DNA of 4,961 nucleotides. Origin: a virus (Duplodnaviria; Heunggongvirae; Uroviricota; Caudoviricetes). Below, piece after piece: positions 1-4,961 of the stretch. The notes beneath the pieces were generated by a model. That model was given only the letters and a program-made list of their open reading frames with translations, was not told where the DNA came from and ran no database searches. Made by a program: the position numbers and the translations under genes. Numbering within the stretch: position 1 is the stretch's first letter; the number at the start of each line of letters is the position of its first letter. Location: positions 1-4,961 of IMG/VR virus record IMGVR_UViG_2698536450_000012; one strand, written 5' to 3'.

Positions 1-84
1 AATGGCAGTGGCTACAGCGACGGCACCTTCTTCCTTTATTGCCTGTTCGTCCGGAATGGCGGCGCAAATAAAGACTTTACTCAT
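1..84 (-). CDS. Hypothetical protein, 5' end only (gene continues past the left edge of the window); N-terminus MSKVFICAAIPDEQAIKEEGAVAVATAI
   Basis: ATG at 84..82 on the minus strand, with a GAGGT Shine-Dalgarno (reverse complement of 93..97) 8 nt upstream. The frame is open to the window edge (28 codons). It is absent from the ORF track because no stop lies inside the window. Confidence 0.5.
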   Translation of the reverse strand, partial: MSKVFICAAIPDEQAIKEEGAVAVATAI

Positions 85-163
85 TTTGTTTTACCTCATT
101 ACAGATTTAAGGGTGAACAAATCCCTGCCATTGCTGGCATATAAAAATGAAACTGGATATTAA

Positions 164-367
164 TTACGGCGCTGTTTTTAATCCTGCCGGGATTTCGTTA
201 TTGTCCATGTGAATAACTTTATCGACCGGATAACAGTTGCCGGGAATTTTCTGTTCCGCTGCGGCAGCCATGCATTCTTTCATTGAGTTGTACATGCCGG
301 TGATTGCATCAAGCGACTCACCAGTATTGAGATGTACAGTCAGAATGAGTATGAATAATGTGTTCAT
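164..367 (-). CDS. Small hypothetical protein (67 aa from the ATG) with a hydrophobic N-terminal segment (MNTLFILILTVHLNTG), possibly a signal peptide or membrane anchor, and two Cys in the C-terminal part
   Basis: ORF track 164..373. The ATG at 367..365 overlaps the TGA stop of the upstream ORF (366..364) as ATGA, which suggests translational coupling. GGAGAG lies 5 nt upstream. The track start at 373 is a GTG two codons further up. Confidence 0.55.
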   Translation of the reverse strand: MNTLFILILTVHLNTGESLDAITGMYNSMKECMAAAAEQKIPGNCYPVDKVIHMDNNEIPAGLKTAP

Positions 368-552
368 CGCCACTCTCCGAAAATACCGAGTTTAAGAAGG
401 GCAATTCTGGAGAGTATGGAATTGTCATTCAGCAGGTAGGGTTCATATTTTCTCATATTGATTGCATCCTCGGTGAAATCCCTGTTACTGAGCAGAACAC
501 CAATATTAAAGCACCCGTCAGACGTATTAACGTTTGGTAGTGACGTTTCCAT
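364..552 (-). CDS. Small hypothetical protein, 62 aa, no recognisable domain
   Basis: ATG at 552..550 lies 10 nt downstream of the rha stop (565..563). A GAGGA Shine-Dalgarno overlaps the rha stop codon with a 7-nt spacer. Same strand and operon context as rha. Confidence 0.55.
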   Translation of the reverse strand: METSLPNVNTSDGCFNIGVLLSNRDFTEDAINMRKYEPYLLNDNSILSRIALLKLGIFGEWR

Positions 553-562
553 TATCGCGTCC

Positions 563-1120
563 TCAACAATGAATTTTTAGCAATTGCTCCACAGTCATAT
601 TTTTAATTGCGCTCCGGTTTACAAGAGTCCATCCTTGTTTCTCCAGATAAAACCGGAAGGTATCCAGGGTGCAGACCATTGCGCCGTCAGGAACGGTTTC
701 AGTGAATTTGATATTGCCGTGTTCGTCGAGACGGATAACTAGGGTGCGTCCGTCCCCGTGAATCATTTTGTCGGGAGACGGGGCGTTATTCTGGCGCAGT
801 TCTTCCTCCATGCGATCGAACTCAGCGATGTAGGCTTCTTTGAAAGTTGCGGCTTTTTTACCTGTGAACCCCATCACCAGGAAAACGAAGCCGTTTTTGG
901 TGATTTGGTACATGGGGCGTTTTTCGCCTTTGGCGTCGGTGTAGGTAACGGGCGTAAAATTGCGCTCGTTAAAATCTTCAGAGCATTCTAGCGTTTCAAT
1001 TTTGCGCAGAACGTCCTTGTGCATTTTGCGGAAGAACTCTGCAACCGCAACAGACGTAGTGACAGCGCGACCATTTTCGATGGTTACGTCAGGGTGAGAA
1101 AGGGTAGGGATAGTAGCCAT
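563..1120 (-). CDS. rha: Phage regulatory protein, Rha family (N-terminal Rha domain MATIPTLSHPDVTIENGRAVTTSVAVAEFFRKMHKDVLRKIETLE...KGEKRPMYQITKNGFVFLVMGFTGKKAATFKEAYIAEFDRMEEEL, plus a C-terminal domain of unknown function)
   Basis: Recognised from memory as the Rha (Phage_pRha) family. Start placed at the ATG at 1120..1118, which has an AAGAGG Shine-Dalgarno (reverse complement of 1129..1134) 8 nt upstream. The ORF track extends the frame to 1417, but that extension contains a terminator-like hairpin with a U-tract and has no domain-like sequence. Confidence 0.8.
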   Translation of the reverse strand: MATIPTLSHPDVTIENGRAVTTSVAVAEFFRKMHKDVLRKIETLECSEDFNERNFTPVTYTDAKGEKRPMYQITKNGFVFLVMGFTGKKAATFKEAYIAEFDRMEEELRQNNAPSPDKMIHGDGRTLVIRLDEHGNIKFTETVPDGAMVCTLDTFRFYLEKQGWTLVNRSAIKNMTVEQLLKIHC

Positions 1121-1150
1121 AATGGCAGCCTCTTGGTTGAGTATTAATAA

Positions 1151-1189
1151 CTCACCACCAAGGTTTTCCACGACCATAAGGGTGGTGAG
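1151..1189 (-). promoter_or_regulatory. Perfect 9-bp inverted repeat (CTCACCACC / GGTGGTGAG) with a 21-nt loop, in the rha 5' leader about 20 nt upstream of the Shine-Dalgarno
   Basis: Read directly: 1151..1159 is the reverse complement of 1181..1189. As RNA on the minus strand the loop contains GUGGAAAAC. Confidence 0.4.
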
Positions 1190-1288
1190 GCGTACAGGGG
1201 TGGAAATACCGGTCAACCAAGAATCCGGCCAGCCTTGCAGCTGCCCTGCACGCCCCACCATAATCTGAATGTGGCTGTGCTTGACGCA

Positions 1289-1312
1289 TAAAAAAACCGC
1301 CTGAGCGCGGTT
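1289..1312 (-). terminator. Candidate intrinsic terminator on the minus strand (stem aaccgc/gcgguu, 6-nt loop, then U7)
   Basis: On the plus strand an A-run (1290..1296) precedes the hairpin at 1295..1312, so on the minus strand the hairpin is followed by UUUUUUU. The stem is short (4 GC and 2 AU pairs), so strength is moderate. Confidence 0.5.
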
Positions 1313-1372
1313 ATGCGCTTGATTGAATTCCGGGTTTCCACGCCCGGCACCCGTTTTATGAGGTGCAGGTGC

Positions 1373-1401
1373 ACTATAATTCCACCCGTTCTGGTTTTCA
1401 A
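1373..1401 (-). promoter_or_regulatory. Candidate sigma70 promoter on the minus strand: -35 TTGAAA (1401..1396), 17-bp spacer, -10 TATAGT (1378..1373); predicted start near 1366
   Basis: Both hexamers match consensus at 5 of 6 positions with the optimal 17-bp spacer. It lies about 75 nt upstream of the terminator at 1289..1312. Confidence 0.4.
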
Positions 1402-1904
1402 TAGCTACATTCAACATTTTCTCTTACCTTTCATCACCGAAGTGAACTTTGTTGATGCGGTGCCTGGTGCCTCCAGGTGACGTTAACCAGTTAACAATTA
1501 ACGCCGGATACAGAGAATCCACCCATAACACTGTTTTTGGTTTTAACTGTTCCGCGTGCGCTGAGCCGCATTCACCGCATCACAAAATTCACTTTAAAAA
1601 GGGCGGCAGAGCAGCCACGGAGTAAAACTGATACTGCCAAACGTCACCAGAAAATTGATAACAGAGGGCGTTGCAGCGGGGTTGTCACTTAAGCGTATGG
1701 TCAACCTGACAACCCGGTGTCCTCAACGGGGAAGGAATAACCCCGCCATACTTACCGCCGCGCCATTTCGCGGAGTGCCACAACCGGAAGCGCACGGTCG
1801 ACGAAAATTTAACGACAGGCTATCTATGAACCAGCAACCTCGCCGTGCACTTTCGCGTTATGCTCTGACTTTTCAGAGAAATATCCTTTCAGTAAACTGT
1901 CAGT

Positions 1905-1954
1905 GCCGGATGTTCACCCGTGTCCGGCGCACGCACTCCACTTCACCCGTGGAG
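1905..1954. other. Two adjacent stem-loops with a shared loop motif TTCACCCGTG (plus strand) / CACGGGUGAA (minus-strand RNA)
   Basis: Hairpin A has stem 1905..1910 / 1923..1928 (gccgga/tccggc) and a 12-nt loop. Hairpin B has stem 1936..1941 / 1949..1954 (ctccac/gtggag) and a 7-nt loop. The 10-mer TTCACCCGTG occurs at 1913..1922 and 1942..1951. Confidence 0.45.
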
Positions 1955-1993
1955 AACTCCTTAATTACCAACCTTAGCTTCGTTGGTTAGCTA

Positions 1994-2212
1994 TTAACGC
2001 GGGTATGTAATCATTCTGGCAATGCTTAATGCCGCTGCTTTTTCCAGATTGGTGATATCCTGCTCCAGAGCGGACAGATTTTCAGCCTGCTTAGCCCTGG
2101 CTTCATTGGCCCATTTCAGGTCCTGCGCTGCCTTAATTTTCTGGTGCATCCACTCATAAAGTTCATCATCGGTATAGTCTGGCGCGATGATGACGGGTTC
2201 TCGTTTCTGCAT
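1994..2212 (-). CDS. Small hypothetical phage protein, 72 aa (MQKREPVIIAPDYTDDELYEWMHQKIKAAQDLKWANEARAKQAENLSALEQDITNLEKAAALSIARMITYPR)
   Basis: ATG at 2212..2210 with an AAGGAG Shine-Dalgarno 5 nt upstream. The sequence looks protein-like (charged, helical). Same orientation as the leftward early operon. Confidence 0.65.
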   Translation of the reverse strand: MQKREPVIIAPDYTDDELYEWMHQKIKAAQDLKWANEARAKQAENLSALEQDITNLEKAAALSIARMITYPR

Positions 2213-2283
2213 GTCGGCTCCTTGTGGTTAGCGTTGCCTGCTTTTAACCACGTCAGGCGAGGTGGTATCCTCTGAGGGGTCTG

Positions 2284-2640
2284 TTACTCGAGAGGAAATT
2301 GGTTATGAATACAATCAAGTTTTCTTGCCCAGAATGTGGCGGCGAAGTCTTTGACACATCCTTTAAACCGCATGGCTCTGACAGTTTCGCGGGAGCCATC
2401 TGCAAAAATTGTGGTCACCTTGTAACTGAAGATGAGTCCTCGCAGTTTGATGACGAAATCGTTGACAATATCTTCGGTGCACTCACCAGAGACTTTCTGA
2501 AGTAAAGGCGCATACCGCTTAGTTACCGCTCTGATAATTCTTACCTGTCCGGCAATGGCGCTGATATCAATATAAAGCGCCATCGCTGTTTCTTTGCTGA
2601 TCCCTGGATGCCTTCCATTCTGATGTTTGACTTCGCCCAC
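2284..2640 (-). CDS. Alternative call: 118-aa ORF immediately downstream of the leftward early promoter (GTG start), fully overlapping the zinc-ribbon ORF on the opposite strand
   Basis: GTG at 2640..2638 with an AGAGGA Shine-Dalgarno and a 7-nt spacer, about 70 nt downstream of the candidate leftward promoter. Against it: 5 of 9 Arg codons are AGA/AGG, there is no recognisable domain, and antisense frames in the same register often stay open by chance. Confidence 0.3.
   Translation of the reverse strand: MGEVKHQNGRHPGISKETAMALYIDISAIAGQVRIIRAVTKRYAPLLQKVSGECTEDIVNDFVIKLRGLIFSYKVTTIFADGSRETVRAMRFKGCVKDFAATFWARKLDCIHNQFPLE
2305..2505 (+). CDS. Small C4 zinc-ribbon protein, 66 aa (CPEC ... CKNC), with an acidic C-terminal tail (EDESSQFDDEIVD)
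   Basis: ATG at 2305 with an AGAGGA Shine-Dalgarno and an 8-nt spacer. Two CxxC pairs are 23 residues apart. Codon usage is ordinary. It is antisense to, and in the same codon register as, the minus ORF 2284..2640, so only one of the two may be real. Confidence 0.55.
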   Translation: MNTIKFSCPECGGEVFDTSFKPHGSDSFAGAICKNCGHLVTEDESSQFDDEIVDNIFGALTRDFLK

Positions 2641-2718
2641 TGAGAAATCCTCTGTTTCCCCTTAACGCCGGGGTAGCGGAACTAAGACCTGTCGCACCGT
2701 TGTGCTTTGATGGAATAC

Positions 2719-2747
2719 ATTGTTCTCTCTAGGTGAACAAAAGTCAA
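2719..2747 (-). promoter_or_regulatory. Candidate leftward early promoter (pL-like) on the minus strand: -35 TTGACT (2747..2742), 17-bp spacer, -10 AACAAT (2724..2719), overlapped by an operator-like inverted repeat TGTTC-N9-GAACA (2721..2739)
   Basis: Same hexamers, spacer length and embedded inverted repeat as the rightward promoter at 3249..3277. It sits immediately downstream of the repressor terminator. Confidence 0.5.
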
Positions 2748-2761
2748 CATGATGAATACGC

Positions 2762-2791
2762 AAAAAAAAAAAAAAACCGCCTTGCGGCGGT
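2762..2791 (-). terminator. Strong intrinsic terminator of the repressor transcript (stem accgcc/ggcggu, GCAA tetraloop, then U15)
   Basis: On the plus strand A15 (2762..2776) is followed by ccgcc ttgc ggcgg (2777..2790). On the minus strand this is a GC hairpin followed by 15 U, about 25 nt downstream of the repressor stop (2813). Confidence 0.8.
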
Positions 2792-2812
2792 ATGATTCTG
2801 TAAAATAAAGAA

Positions 2813-3202
2813 TTATTTTTGTCGTGTTATTGGGTCGACGTATTCTGAGTAAAATTCGGTCAGTTTTTGGAGTCGCATTTGAAAAGCTGCCAGCATATTT
2901 CTACGTTCTACAGGTGGCAGGTTTCTGTAAACATCAAGCAGGGCCTTCTCGTCATCATCAAGCGCCTCTCTATTTGTCTCTTCTTTCCCTGTCAGTAGCC
3001 AAGAAAGGGAAACGTTTGTGGCTTCTGCAATTTTGGCTGCGGAATCTTTACTGATTGTTCCTCTTTTTTTCCATGCGTTGACTGATGAACGACCTACACC
3101 AGCGATACGCGCTAAATCTGAACCACTTAAATGATGCTGTTGAGAGATCGTATCTAACCTTTCTGCTAGCGGGGTGTCGTATTGCTTTTTTCTCATGTCC
3201 AT
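2813..3202 (-). CDS. Prophage repressor, XRE-type helix-turn-helix (cI / RacR / DicA-like), 129 aa
   Basis: Helix-turn-helix motif LSGSDLARIAGVGRSSVNAWKKRG. Divergent from the Cro-like gene. A consensus TATAAT ends 7 nt before the ATG, which predicts a leaderless transcript with no Shine-Dalgarno, as for lambda cI from pRM. Confidence 0.85.
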   Translation of the reverse strand: MDMRKKQYDTPLAERLDTISQQHHLSGSDLARIAGVGRSSVNAWKKRGTISKDSAAKIAEATNVSLSWLLTGKEETNREALDDDEKALLDVYRNLPPVERRNMLAAFQMRLQKLTEFYSEYVDPITRQK

Positions 3203-3208
3203 TTGGCA

Positions 3209-3236
3209 ATTATAACCGTTCAGTGAACACTAACAA
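3209..3236 (-). promoter_or_regulatory. Candidate repressor-maintenance promoter (pRM-like) on the minus strand: -35 TTGTTA (3236..3231), 16-bp spacer, -10 TATAAT (3214..3209); the spacer contains the palindrome GTTCAgTGAAC (3218..3228)
   Basis: Hexamers and spacing read directly. The predicted transcription start coincides with the A of the repressor ATG at 3202. Confidence 0.5.
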
Positions 3237-3248
3237 TTCCTCGAGGTG

Positions 3249-3277
3249 TTGACTTGTGTTCGTTTTAAGTGAACAAT
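3249..3277 (+). promoter_or_regulatory. Candidate rightward early promoter (pR-like): -35 TTGACT (3249..3254), 17-bp spacer, -10 AACAAT (3272..3277), overlapped by an operator-like inverted repeat TGTTC-N9-GAACA (3257..3275)
   Basis: Back-to-back with the pRM-like promoter. A GGAGG Shine-Dalgarno (3297..3301) precedes the ATG at 3306. Confidence 0.5.
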
Positions 3278-3305
3278 CGTTGTGGTTAGTTGAACTGGAG
3301 GTTGT

Positions 3306-3581
3306 ATGACAGCATTGGACAAAGCAATAAAGATTGCTGGTGGTATTCGTCCGCTAGGGCGTGCAATAGGGGCTTGGCCATCTCAAATACACAAATGGGC
3401 AAATGAATACAATGGTCGAGTGCCGACGGGAGAACGGGTTCGTCAAATTTATATTGCAACTGGGGTTACTCCTCATGAATTGCGACCAGATTTATACCCG
3501 AATCCAACTGACGGGTTGCCTGCTGGAGATAAGGCTAACACACCAAATACACCGGAGTTGATTCATGAAAATCAAGCATGA
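3306..3581 (+). CDS. ydaS: Cro-like DNA-binding regulator, YdaS family, 91 aa
   Basis: Divergent from the repressor, with a GGAGG Shine-Dalgarno. The motif GVTPHELRPDLYP is typical of the YdaS / Cro-type family as recalled from memory. Confidence 0.8.
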   Translation: MTALDKAIKIAGGIRPLGRAIGAWPSQIHKWANEYNGRVPTGERVRQIYIATGVTPHELRPDLYPNPTDGLPAGDKANTPNTPELIHENQA

Positions 3582-4061: not shown

Positions 4062-4961
4062 ATGGCTAACGCCTGGCTCAGATTATGGCATGACATGCCA
4101 AATGACCCTAAGTGGCGAACAATTGCCAGGGTGTCAGGGCAGCCAATTGCAACAGTGATGGCAGTGTATATCCACCTCCTGGTGAGCGCGTCACGAAATG
4201 TCACGCGAGGTCACATTGATGTCACGACAGAAGATTTGGCAAGTGCGCTCGACGTGACAGAAGAGGTAATTGATTCAATTTTGCAGACGATGCAGGGGCG
4301 GGTACTTGATGGTGATTTAATCACTGGATGGGAAAAACGCCAGGTGCTGAAAGAGGACAACGGCAATATTTCGCAAACCGCAAAATCTCCTGCAGAGCGC
4401 AAGAGGGCGCAGCGAGAGAGGGAAAGAAAGCGGGAACAAAATGGCGATTGTCACGGCGCGTCACGAAATGTCACGCACATGTCACGACGAGTCACGACAG
4501 ATAAAGATACAGATAAAGATACAGATCAAGAAGATCAAAACACTATGGTCCATGGCGTAAAAAACGCCACGAACCAGGCAGGGGATGTTCAGACCGTCAA
4601 TCCTGGTCAGCCAGCAGGCACGACACCGGAAGCCGATTCAGCGTATGCGCTGAAAGCCGATTCGGGCGCTGTGCAGCAGGTGATGACCGCAAGGCCGGAG
4701 CAATCACACCAACTGCAGCAGCCTGAAGCCGATTCCGCCATTCAGCGGGAAGCCGATCGGGTAGTCCCGGAAAGCACCGGGCAGTCTGTGGGACGAGTGG
4801 ATTATCCGGATGTGTTCGAACAGGTCTGGCGGGAATACCCGTTGCGTGCCGGGGCAAACCCGAAGAAATCCGCTTTCAGTGCCTGGAAGGCCAGATTGCG
4901 CGAGGGGGTGCCACCAGAGACCATGCTGGATGGTGTGAGGCGTTACGCGAGATACCTGGCG
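4062..4961 (+). CDS. Phage replication initiation / replisome-organizer-type protein, 3' end outside the window (300 codons open to the edge); YdaU / lambda-O-equivalent position; family assignment unverified
   Basis: ATG at 4062 with an AGAGGTGA Shine-Dalgarno. Translated by hand with no stop to position 4961 (MANAWLRLWHDMPNDPKWRTIARVSGQPIATVMAVYIHLL...). Two iteron clusters lie inside the gene. It is absent from the ORF track because it has no stop. Confidence 0.8.
   Translation, partial: MANAWLRLWHDMPNDPKWRTIARVSGQPIATVMAVYIHLLVSASRNVTRGHIDVTTEDLASALDVTEEVIDSILQTMQGRVLDGDLITGWEKRQVLKEDNGNISQTAKSPAERKRAQRERERKREQNGDCHGASRNVTHMSRRVTTDKDTDKDTDQEDQNTMVHGVKNATNQAGDVQTVNPGQPAGTTPEADSAYALKADSGAVQQVMTARPEQSHQLQQPEADSAIQREADRVVPESTGQSVGRVDYPDVFEQVWREYPLRAGANPKKSAFSAWKARLREGVPPETMLDGVRRYARYLA
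4190..4230. repeat. Iteron cluster 1: four GTCACG/GTCACA repeats at 10-11 bp spacing (4190, 4200, 4210, 4221)
   Basis: Read directly: gtcacgaaat gtcacgcgag gtcacattgat gtcacgacag. The spacing is helically phased. Confidence 0.6.
4450..4541. repeat. Iteron cluster 2: five GTCACG repeats (4450, 4460, 4470, 4481, 4491), then an A-rich tract with a tandem 12-bp repeat CAGATAAAGATA x2 (4498..4521) and two GATC sites (4524, 4533); candidate phage origin of replication
   Basis: Read directly. The 18-mer GCGTCACGAAATGTCACG is shared between the two clusters (4187..4204 and 4457..4474). Iterons followed by an AT-rich segment inside the initiator gene mirror the lambda origin within gene O. Confidence 0.6.

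Follow-up and report, generated by a model that had tools for sequence, protein, structure and literature searches.

Introduction

The closest described counterparts of the locus studied here are the genes dicB and ydfD in the Qin (Kim) prophage of Escherichia coli K-12. There the annotated order is ydfA, ydfB, ydfC, dicF, dicB, ydfD ("lysis protein") and ydfE, and a single ydfABC-dicF-dicB-ydfD transcript has been described (PMC10448788). DicB binds the division regulator MinC and, together with ZipA, recruits it to midcell, which prevents formation of the Z-ring; via MinC it also inhibits ManYZ, providing an approximately 100-fold resistance to lambda and other ManYZ-dependent phages (PMC6832061). 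The N-terminal ~14 residues of K-12 DicB and in particular Leu5 are essential for its function. The last 8 aa are dispensable, while C-terminal deletions of at least 12 residues lower the activity (PMC4967827).

Expression of K-12 YdfD lyses cells, and lysis is prevented by co-expression of either DicB or SulA (PMC8835842). YdfD was reported to bind IspG, and overexpression of ispG or HMBPP rescues the cells from lysis (PMC8835842). This IspG mechanism, as reported, comes from the work of one laboratory. A further described system that concerns the locus is the isrK-orf45-anrP antirepressor module, for which a function of its own has been described (PMC4825925).

Here we analysed a DNA stretch of 4,961 nucleotides, called the window in the following, which its gene content assigns to a Qin-like lambdoid prophage of Escherichia, where it covers the immunity region and the early-left region. 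A first-pass annotation had described two coupled small genes downstream of rha (ORF62 and ORF67) and had considered neither protein recognisable. Judged by homology, the two genes are the already known pair of dicB, a cell-division inhibitor gene, and ydfD, a lysis protein gene, which is found in most E. coli genomes. Our preferred reading, to which we assign a probability of roughly 0.87, is that window 164-552 represents the dicB-ydfD module of a repressor-controlled early-left operon with functions like those in K-12.

Results

Gene layout

ORF62 and ORF67 are both encoded on the minus strand. The segments relevant for their translation are:

553..577, minus strand: dicB translation-initiation region, AAAATTCATTGTTGAGGACGCGATA, identical to the 25 nt before dicB of K-12 Qin
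364..552, minus strand: dicB (ORF62), 62 aa, ATG 552..550, TGA 366..364, stop included
364..378, minus strand: dicB/ydfD junction with GGAG (375-378), a 7-nt spacer and ATGA (364-367)
164..367, minus strand: ydfD-like gene (ORF67), 67 aa, ATG 367..365, TAA 166..164, stop included

The stop codon of rha was read from the sequence as TGA at 565..563, and a gap of 10 nt, GGACGCGATA (562..553), separates it from the ATG of ORF62. The Shine-Dalgarno sequence GAGGA of dicB (564..560) is found 7 nt before the ATG and overlaps the rha stop, such that the coordinates given for this arrangement in the first-pass annotation hold. The initiation region 553..577 contains, besides GAGGA (560-564), the last five codons of rha and its stop (563-565).

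For ORF67 a GGAG sequence (378..375) precedes the ATG by 7 nt, and the start codon overlaps the dicB stop by 4 nt within ATGA at 364-367. According to the ORF listing the frame of ORF67 can be extended upstream to a GTG at 373. We took the ATG as the start, since all homologues as well as the RefSeq protein begin at the ATG of an MNT or MNS sequence. The 4-nt overlap is shared by K-12 Qin, B19695, CU37RT-2, E. albertii and the phages PPompW and 689R5, and it is annotated in a Klebsiella phage as well. The ATGA-type overlap, already pointed out before, is thus conserved in every relative inspected. From the tight coupling that had been proposed for the locus, the close packing and a probable co-translation of ORF62 and ORF67 stand; the shared function with Rha that had been drawn from it does not (see below).

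The DicB-like protein

ORF62 matched the Pfam family PF05358 (DicB) with an E-value of 1.3e-32 and 111.7 bits (cutoff 27) over residues 1-60 of 62. The match to NCBIfam NF049927 (DicB) reached 103.4 bits at a cutoff of 100, i.e. with a margin of only 3 bits. The protein is 64% identical to K-12 DicB over aa 1-55 and 100% identical to RefSeq WP_000450218.1, "cell division inhibition protein DicB", of strain B19695. From these matches we classify ORF62 as a member of the DicB family.

The N-terminus reads METSLPNVNTSDGC in the window versus MKTLLPNVNTSEGC in K-12. Leu5 was invariant in 26 homologues, and most of the N-terminal residues were nearly so. Divergence from K-12 was found mainly after residue 35 and was largest in the last 8 aa. 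By sequence comparison, the part after residue 35 belongs to an allelic class other than that of K-12 (YEPYLLNDNSILSRIALLKLGIFGEWR versus QERELLNKICIVSMLARLRLMPKGCAQ). A sequence search of the PDB with DicB returned no significant match, the one hit being at E = 0.06. The AlphaFold2 models obtained from the alignments of ORF62 and ORF67 were of low confidence, one with a pLDDT of 67.2 and the other with 61.8, and structure contributed nothing to the identification.

A separate observation is that the 5' end of the small RNA DicF (window 1639-1654) shows complementarity to codons 2-7 of dicB (window 533-548). The duplex energy from RNAduplex was -27.5 kcal/mol compared to -20.9 ± 3.4 kcal/mol for shuffled sequences, with 4.4% of the shuffles being equal or better. 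The K-12 duplex was similar and was matched or beaten by 3% of the shuffles. Pairing of DicF near the start of dicB is supported by a marginal signal, which chance could explain.

The YdfD-like protein

ORF67 matched Pfam PF07358 (DUF1482) with an E-value of 4.4e-19 and 68.6 bits (cutoff 25), its residues 4-61 spanning profile positions 1-57 of 57. It furthermore matched phrog_1092 (E 1.3e-35) and K-12 YdfD (b1576, "lysis protein") with 65% identity over 63 aa, and it is 100% identical to RefSeq WP_021569117.1 (DUF1482) of strain CU37RT-2. On this basis ORF67 is assigned as orthologous to YdfD, the lysis protein of Qin. With full-length matches to curated families and exact sequences that are named in RefSeq, both proteins are recognisable, contrary to what had been stated.

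Compared with K-12 YdfD, ORF67 ends in four extra residues, KTAP. The resulting 67-aa form is the commonest length of close homologues (64/120 among the clusters listed). Loss or mutation of the last residue is known to weaken lysis for K-12 YdfD. No match for YdfD was found by sequence search in the PDB. The EQKIPGNCYPVDKVI core is invariant or nearly so among the homologues, and Cys32 and Cys45 of ORF67 are invariant across 28 of them; the conserved cysteines of YdfD were also noted previously (PMC8835842).

A hydrophobic N-terminus and two cysteines had been noticed in ORF67 before, and both features are present. The N-terminus begins with MNTLFILILTVHLNTGES, in which residues 3-13 (TLFILILTVHL) are hydrophobic, corresponding to a run of ~11 residues. 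One may therefore ask whether ORF67 works at the membrane or in the periplasm, with a signal peptide or anchor, a disulfide between the cysteines and direct damage to the envelope, rather than on the cytoplasmic IspG. We consider this unlikely, even though it survives better than the other alternatives. In its favour, the hydrophobic residues are followed by a conserved (N/V)(T/S)G-E(P/S) sequence that resembles a signal-peptidase site, where the putative cleavage would occur between G and E of L-N-T-G-E in ORF67 and of V-S-G-E in K-12 YdfD. An AlphaFold2 model calculated from the alignment contains a helix at residues 3-15, the model being of low confidence. The invariant Cys32 and Cys45 would suit such a location as well. 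Reportedly, Masuda et al. described in 2016 the N-terminal 22 residues of YdfD as a hydrophobic, membrane-associating domain.

The length and composition of the segment speak against it. We calculated Kyte-Doolittle averages and compared them with the classical threshold for a membrane span, a 19-aa mean of 1.6, which is a crude measure. The 9-aa maximum of ORF67 was 2.89, while its 19-aa maximum was 1.32 and thus below the threshold; for K-12 YdfD a 19-aa maximum of 2.0 was found, a value that speaks for the membrane reading. Relative to the K-12 protein the hydrophobic stretch of ORF67 is weakened by His12 and Asn14. A transmembrane segment of ~18-20 hydrophobic residues was not detected in ORF67 by this hydropathy scan. 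Regarding the features of a Sec signal peptide, the h-region is present, but the n-region (MNT) carries neither Lys nor Arg. The suggestion of a secreted or membrane peptide is thus not supported by the segment, which is too short for a confident span and lacks the positively charged n-region of a typical signal peptide. Further counterevidence comes from the K-12 protein. Its Cys mutants retain IspG binding, and lysis is relieved by ispG overexpression or HMBPP (PMC8835842). Its C-terminal domain is essential and on its own keeps reduced killing activity, according to earlier work in the form relayed by PMC8835842.

The early-left operon

The preferred reading places the pair in a leftward operon in the order ydfC - dicF - [isrK/C4-orf45-rha cassette] - dicB - ydfD - exonuclease. 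Outside of the cassette its elements are:

1..84, minus strand: start of the exonuclease gene, the next gene after ydfD, running off the window
1601..1652, minus strand: DicF small RNA, Rfam RF00039, 67.3 bits (gathering 48), full length
1994..2212, minus strand: ydfC, phrog_1744 (E 2e-39), aligning to K-12 ydfC
2719..2747, minus strand: pL/dicBp-like promoter of the leftward operon, TTGACT-17-AACAAT

A terminator-like stem of DicF is located at 1618-1603. The first 28 aa of the exonuclease are identical to the RefSeq "exonuclease" encoded behind ydfD in CU37RT-2. The promoter of the operon lies within one of two 31-nt inverted repeats (2719-2749 and 3247-3277), which are 77% complementary and include pL-like and pR-like promoters. 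These repeats flank the repressor gene (2813-3202) and carry GTGAACA operator-like motifs. The repressor itself is weakly DicA-like, with 37 bits versus a cutoff of 101. Matches to GGTGAACAA with at most one mismatch were found 5 times where 1.4 were expected, and 4/200 shuffles reached 5.

Several observations were made alongside. The intergenic stretch between ydfD and the exonuclease gene also contains an exact copy of GGTGAACAA, at 112-120. On the plus strand at 2305-2505 a gene for a 66-aa CxxC zinc-ribbon protein (NCBIfam ECs_2282 family, E 1e-15) is found inside the early-left operon in an orientation opposite to it. Nearby, at 2762-2791, there is an A14 homopolymer together with a GC-rich hairpin, the latter resembling a bidirectional terminator that follows the repressor gene. 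Finally, iteron-like direct repeats containing GTCACG occur on the plus strand at 4190-4228 and 4450-4498 within the replisome-organizer gene, and these repeats are probably the prophage replication origin.

The rha cassette

The region between dicF and dicB differs from K-12 by an additional block:

578..1442, minus strand: cassette of 865 nt absent from the K-12 dicB leader, containing the isrK promoter, isrK, C4/orf45 and rha (from BLAST against K-12)
563..1123, minus strand: rha/AnrP-like antirepressor core, 186 aa from ATG 1123, frame open to 1417
1290-1366, minus strand: isrK RNA, Rfam 69.2 bits (gathering 50), full length
1178-1265, minus strand: C4 antisense RNA, Rfam 78 bits (gathering 45), full length

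In the BLAST alignments, window 1443-2212 matched K-12 ydfC-dicF and the dicB leader with 96.6% identity, ending 18 nt before dicB, and window 1-577 matched K-12 from 25 nt before dicB onward with 76%. Both junctions of the cassette share a short microhomology, AAA(A/G)TTCA. The difference may stem from an insertion in the window as well as from a loss in K-12. The RNA control region of the cassette (1178..1366) is accompanied by a promoter-like site at 1401-1373 and a terminator at 1312-1295. Rha matched Pfam Phage_pRha (E 2e-31), TIGR02681 and phrog_995.

In the window orf45 and rha are joined into one continuous frame. RefSeq annotates a 284-aa "Rha" ORF (563-1417) whose start lies before the 5' end of isrK, and translation of its N-terminal extension in the annotated form is improbable. 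A similar fusion of 287 aa was mentioned for S. dysenteriae (PMC4825925). In relatives a "partial DicB" is annotated upstream of rha. A tblastn search with DicB found no second dicB copy in the window. The annotated fragment is the long in-frame leader ORF preceding K-12 dicB, which is split by the cassette.

The first-pass annotation had suggested that Rha shares its function with the two small proteins. That rha, ORF62 and ORF67 form a single functional unit, in which the small proteins work with Rha, appears highly improbable to us. The arrangement itself invites the idea: the Shine-Dalgarno sequence of dicB contains the rha stop and there is no intervening terminator, such that ribosomes ending translation of rha could re-initiate at dicB. 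That a number of E. coli genomes retain the trio (counts below) also speaks for it. The 25 nt before the dicB ATG, Shine-Dalgarno sequence included, are nonetheless identical in K-12, which has no rha. The overlap of the Shine-Dalgarno sequence with the rha stop hence represents the ordinary initiation region of dicB rather than one that evolved with rha, and the nearness of rha is, from the alignments, a by-product of the cassette junction.

The distribution of the genes leads in the same direction. Co-occurrence was counted from BLAST searches of phage records and of complete genomes of E. coli, since a contig search gave too few loci: searching genome contigs with the single YdfD protein returned one locus only, from E. 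albertii. Using 164-552 as query, 4292/5426 complete E. coli genomes contained any dicB-ydfD match and 3655 of the 5426 contained one at a query coverage of at least 80%. The trio (query 164-1420) is kept at the same coverage in 271/5426 genomes, such that more than 90% of the pair-bearing genomes are without rha. When window 1-1450 was searched in 50,697 phage records, none covered 80%, the two halves being found separately. No contiguous trio was thus seen in the phage records. The proposal that rha, orf62 and orf67 are conserved as a unit consequently fails, as the pair is conserved with each other but not with rha.

The cassette is moreover seen with another neighbour. In E. coli UID2309220036 (locus 2221-3336) kil stands directly behind this rha cassette, with the exonuclease known from the window coming next, and the cassette homology ends at window 579, i.e. 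at the same boundary. The slot before the exonuclease therefore appears to hold interchangeable division inhibitors, either dicB-ydfD or kil. Being an indel that precedes kil elsewhere and that belongs to the isrK-orf45-anrP module with its own function (PMC4825925), the cassette offers no ground for a function shared with the pair. We conclude from the comparison of the loci that Rha is most plausibly an unrelated antirepressor module within the dicB leader of a minority lineage.

Occurrence and selection of the pair

Among the E. coli records listed, all were annotated as DicB together with DUF1482/YdfD at this locus. Pairwise dN/dS ratios ranged from 0.10 to 0.45 for dicB and from 0.10 to 0.34 for ydfD, which indicates that both genes are under purifying selection. 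That they are decaying, non-functional remnants of a cryptic prophage is very improbable: Qin-type prophages are often defective and related loci contain frameshifts (in the integrase in B19695 and CU37RT-2, in the exonuclease in PPompW), but here neither reading frame is interrupted and each has a good Shine-Dalgarno site, the dN/dS values are well below 1, the functional determinants are retained and identical proteins occur in other strains.

In the phage PPompW (locus 2316-2689) DicB is 85% identical to that of the window, and the adjacent YdfD-like protein just 50%; the latter starts with GTG in a GTGA overlap. These identities indicate that dicB and ydfD have been separated by recombination. 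More distant DUF1482 homologues with ~41-42% identity were seen in a Klebsiella phage (locus 2391-2692) and in the Salmonella phage SW-37 (~2300-2690). Both are coupled, by ATGA or by a one-base TGATG overlap, to small upstream ORFs (37 aa and ~66 aa) that are unrelated to DicB. This raises the question whether such ORFs are alternative partners that restrain YdfD-like lysis. Searching DicB, YdfD and Rha against the PADLOC-DB defence models provided no match at E <= 0.01.

Discussion

The functions of the dicB and ydfD alleles in the window are predicted by homology from the K-12 proteins. If they behave alike, DicB together with ZipA would take MinC to the septum, such that FtsZ rings would be dismantled and the cells would filament. 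Through the same interaction with MinC it would inhibit ManYZ and thereby exclude lambda-like phages that inject their DNA via ManYZ. The small YdfD would act as a lytic toxin with IspG of the MEP isoprenoid pathway, which it reportedly binds and inhibits, as its target. Lysis would require ongoing division and would be cancelled by DicB or SulA. The ATGA overlap would tie the synthesis of YdfD to that of DicB, such that YdfD would not be made in excess, and with such a tie the division block could restrain lysis.

The early guess of a toxin or a superinfection-exclusion factor turned out well in its general direction, given that K-12 YdfD is a lytic toxin (PMC8835842) and that DicB blocks entry of lambda DNA via ManYZ (PMC6832061). 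Exclusion had however been sought in the hydrophobic protein, while this function belongs to the non-hydrophobic DicB.

The architecture at the junction of the isrK/C4-rha cassette is the sole mildly new point and could, speculatively, provide a second regulatory input into dicB-ydfD. Transcripts from the isrK promoter that pass the isrK terminator, in combination with ribosomes that finish rha, could drive synthesis of DicB and YdfD, a possibility that we regard as rather doubtful. If true, the division-inhibitor/lysis pair would stand under the control of an RNA-switch antirepressor circuit besides that of the prophage repressor. Otherwise the discovery value is small, with curated families, studied K-12 orthologues and identical sequences already in RefSeq. 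A useful correction results nevertheless: dicB and ydfD are the appropriate labels for the pair, instead of small genes of no known family that are tied to Rha.

Comparison with known systems

YdfD has been likened to the single-gene lysis proteins E of phiX174, A2 of Qbeta and LysM of phage M, which lyse by blocking the synthesis of envelope precursors and not by digesting the wall (PMC8835842). A sequence relation to YdfD has been neither found nor claimed. In contrast to these proteins, YdfD is encoded in the early operon of a temperate phage and not in a lysis cassette, and its reported target IspG is cytoplasmic and acts upstream of the lipid-carrier pathway. Within E. coli, the proteins named YebW belong to the same family as YdfD (DUF1482).

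The cassette resembles isrK-orf45-anrP of Salmonella Gifsy-1 and c4-icd-ant of P1 immI in its combination of isrK and C4, a promoter, a terminator and a Rha/antirepressor gene. It differs from the Gifsy-1 module in that orf45 is fused to rha, without an AUGA overlap. For isrJ no Rfam match was obtained in the window. Kil of Rac and lambda, an FtsZ-directed division inhibitor of the early-left operon, takes the same slot between the rha cassette and the exonuclease as dicB-ydfD. In UID2309220036 the gene is annotated as Rac prophage Kil, the locus has no match to the DicB query, and no ydfD partner is annotated alongside.

The nearest system remains Qin (Kim) of K-12. Compared with its dicB (b1575), the C-terminal third of the window protein comes from another allelic class, and the long leader ORF that is in frame with dicB there is interrupted in the window by the isrK/C4-rha cassette. 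Compared with its YdfD (b1576), the window protein has the KTAP extension and a weaker hydrophobic stretch. In common are for DicB the length of 62 aa, the position between dicF and ydfD, the ribosome-binding region and the N-terminal segment containing Leu5, and for YdfD the hydrophobic N-terminus, the two invariant cysteines and the 4-nt overlap with dicB.
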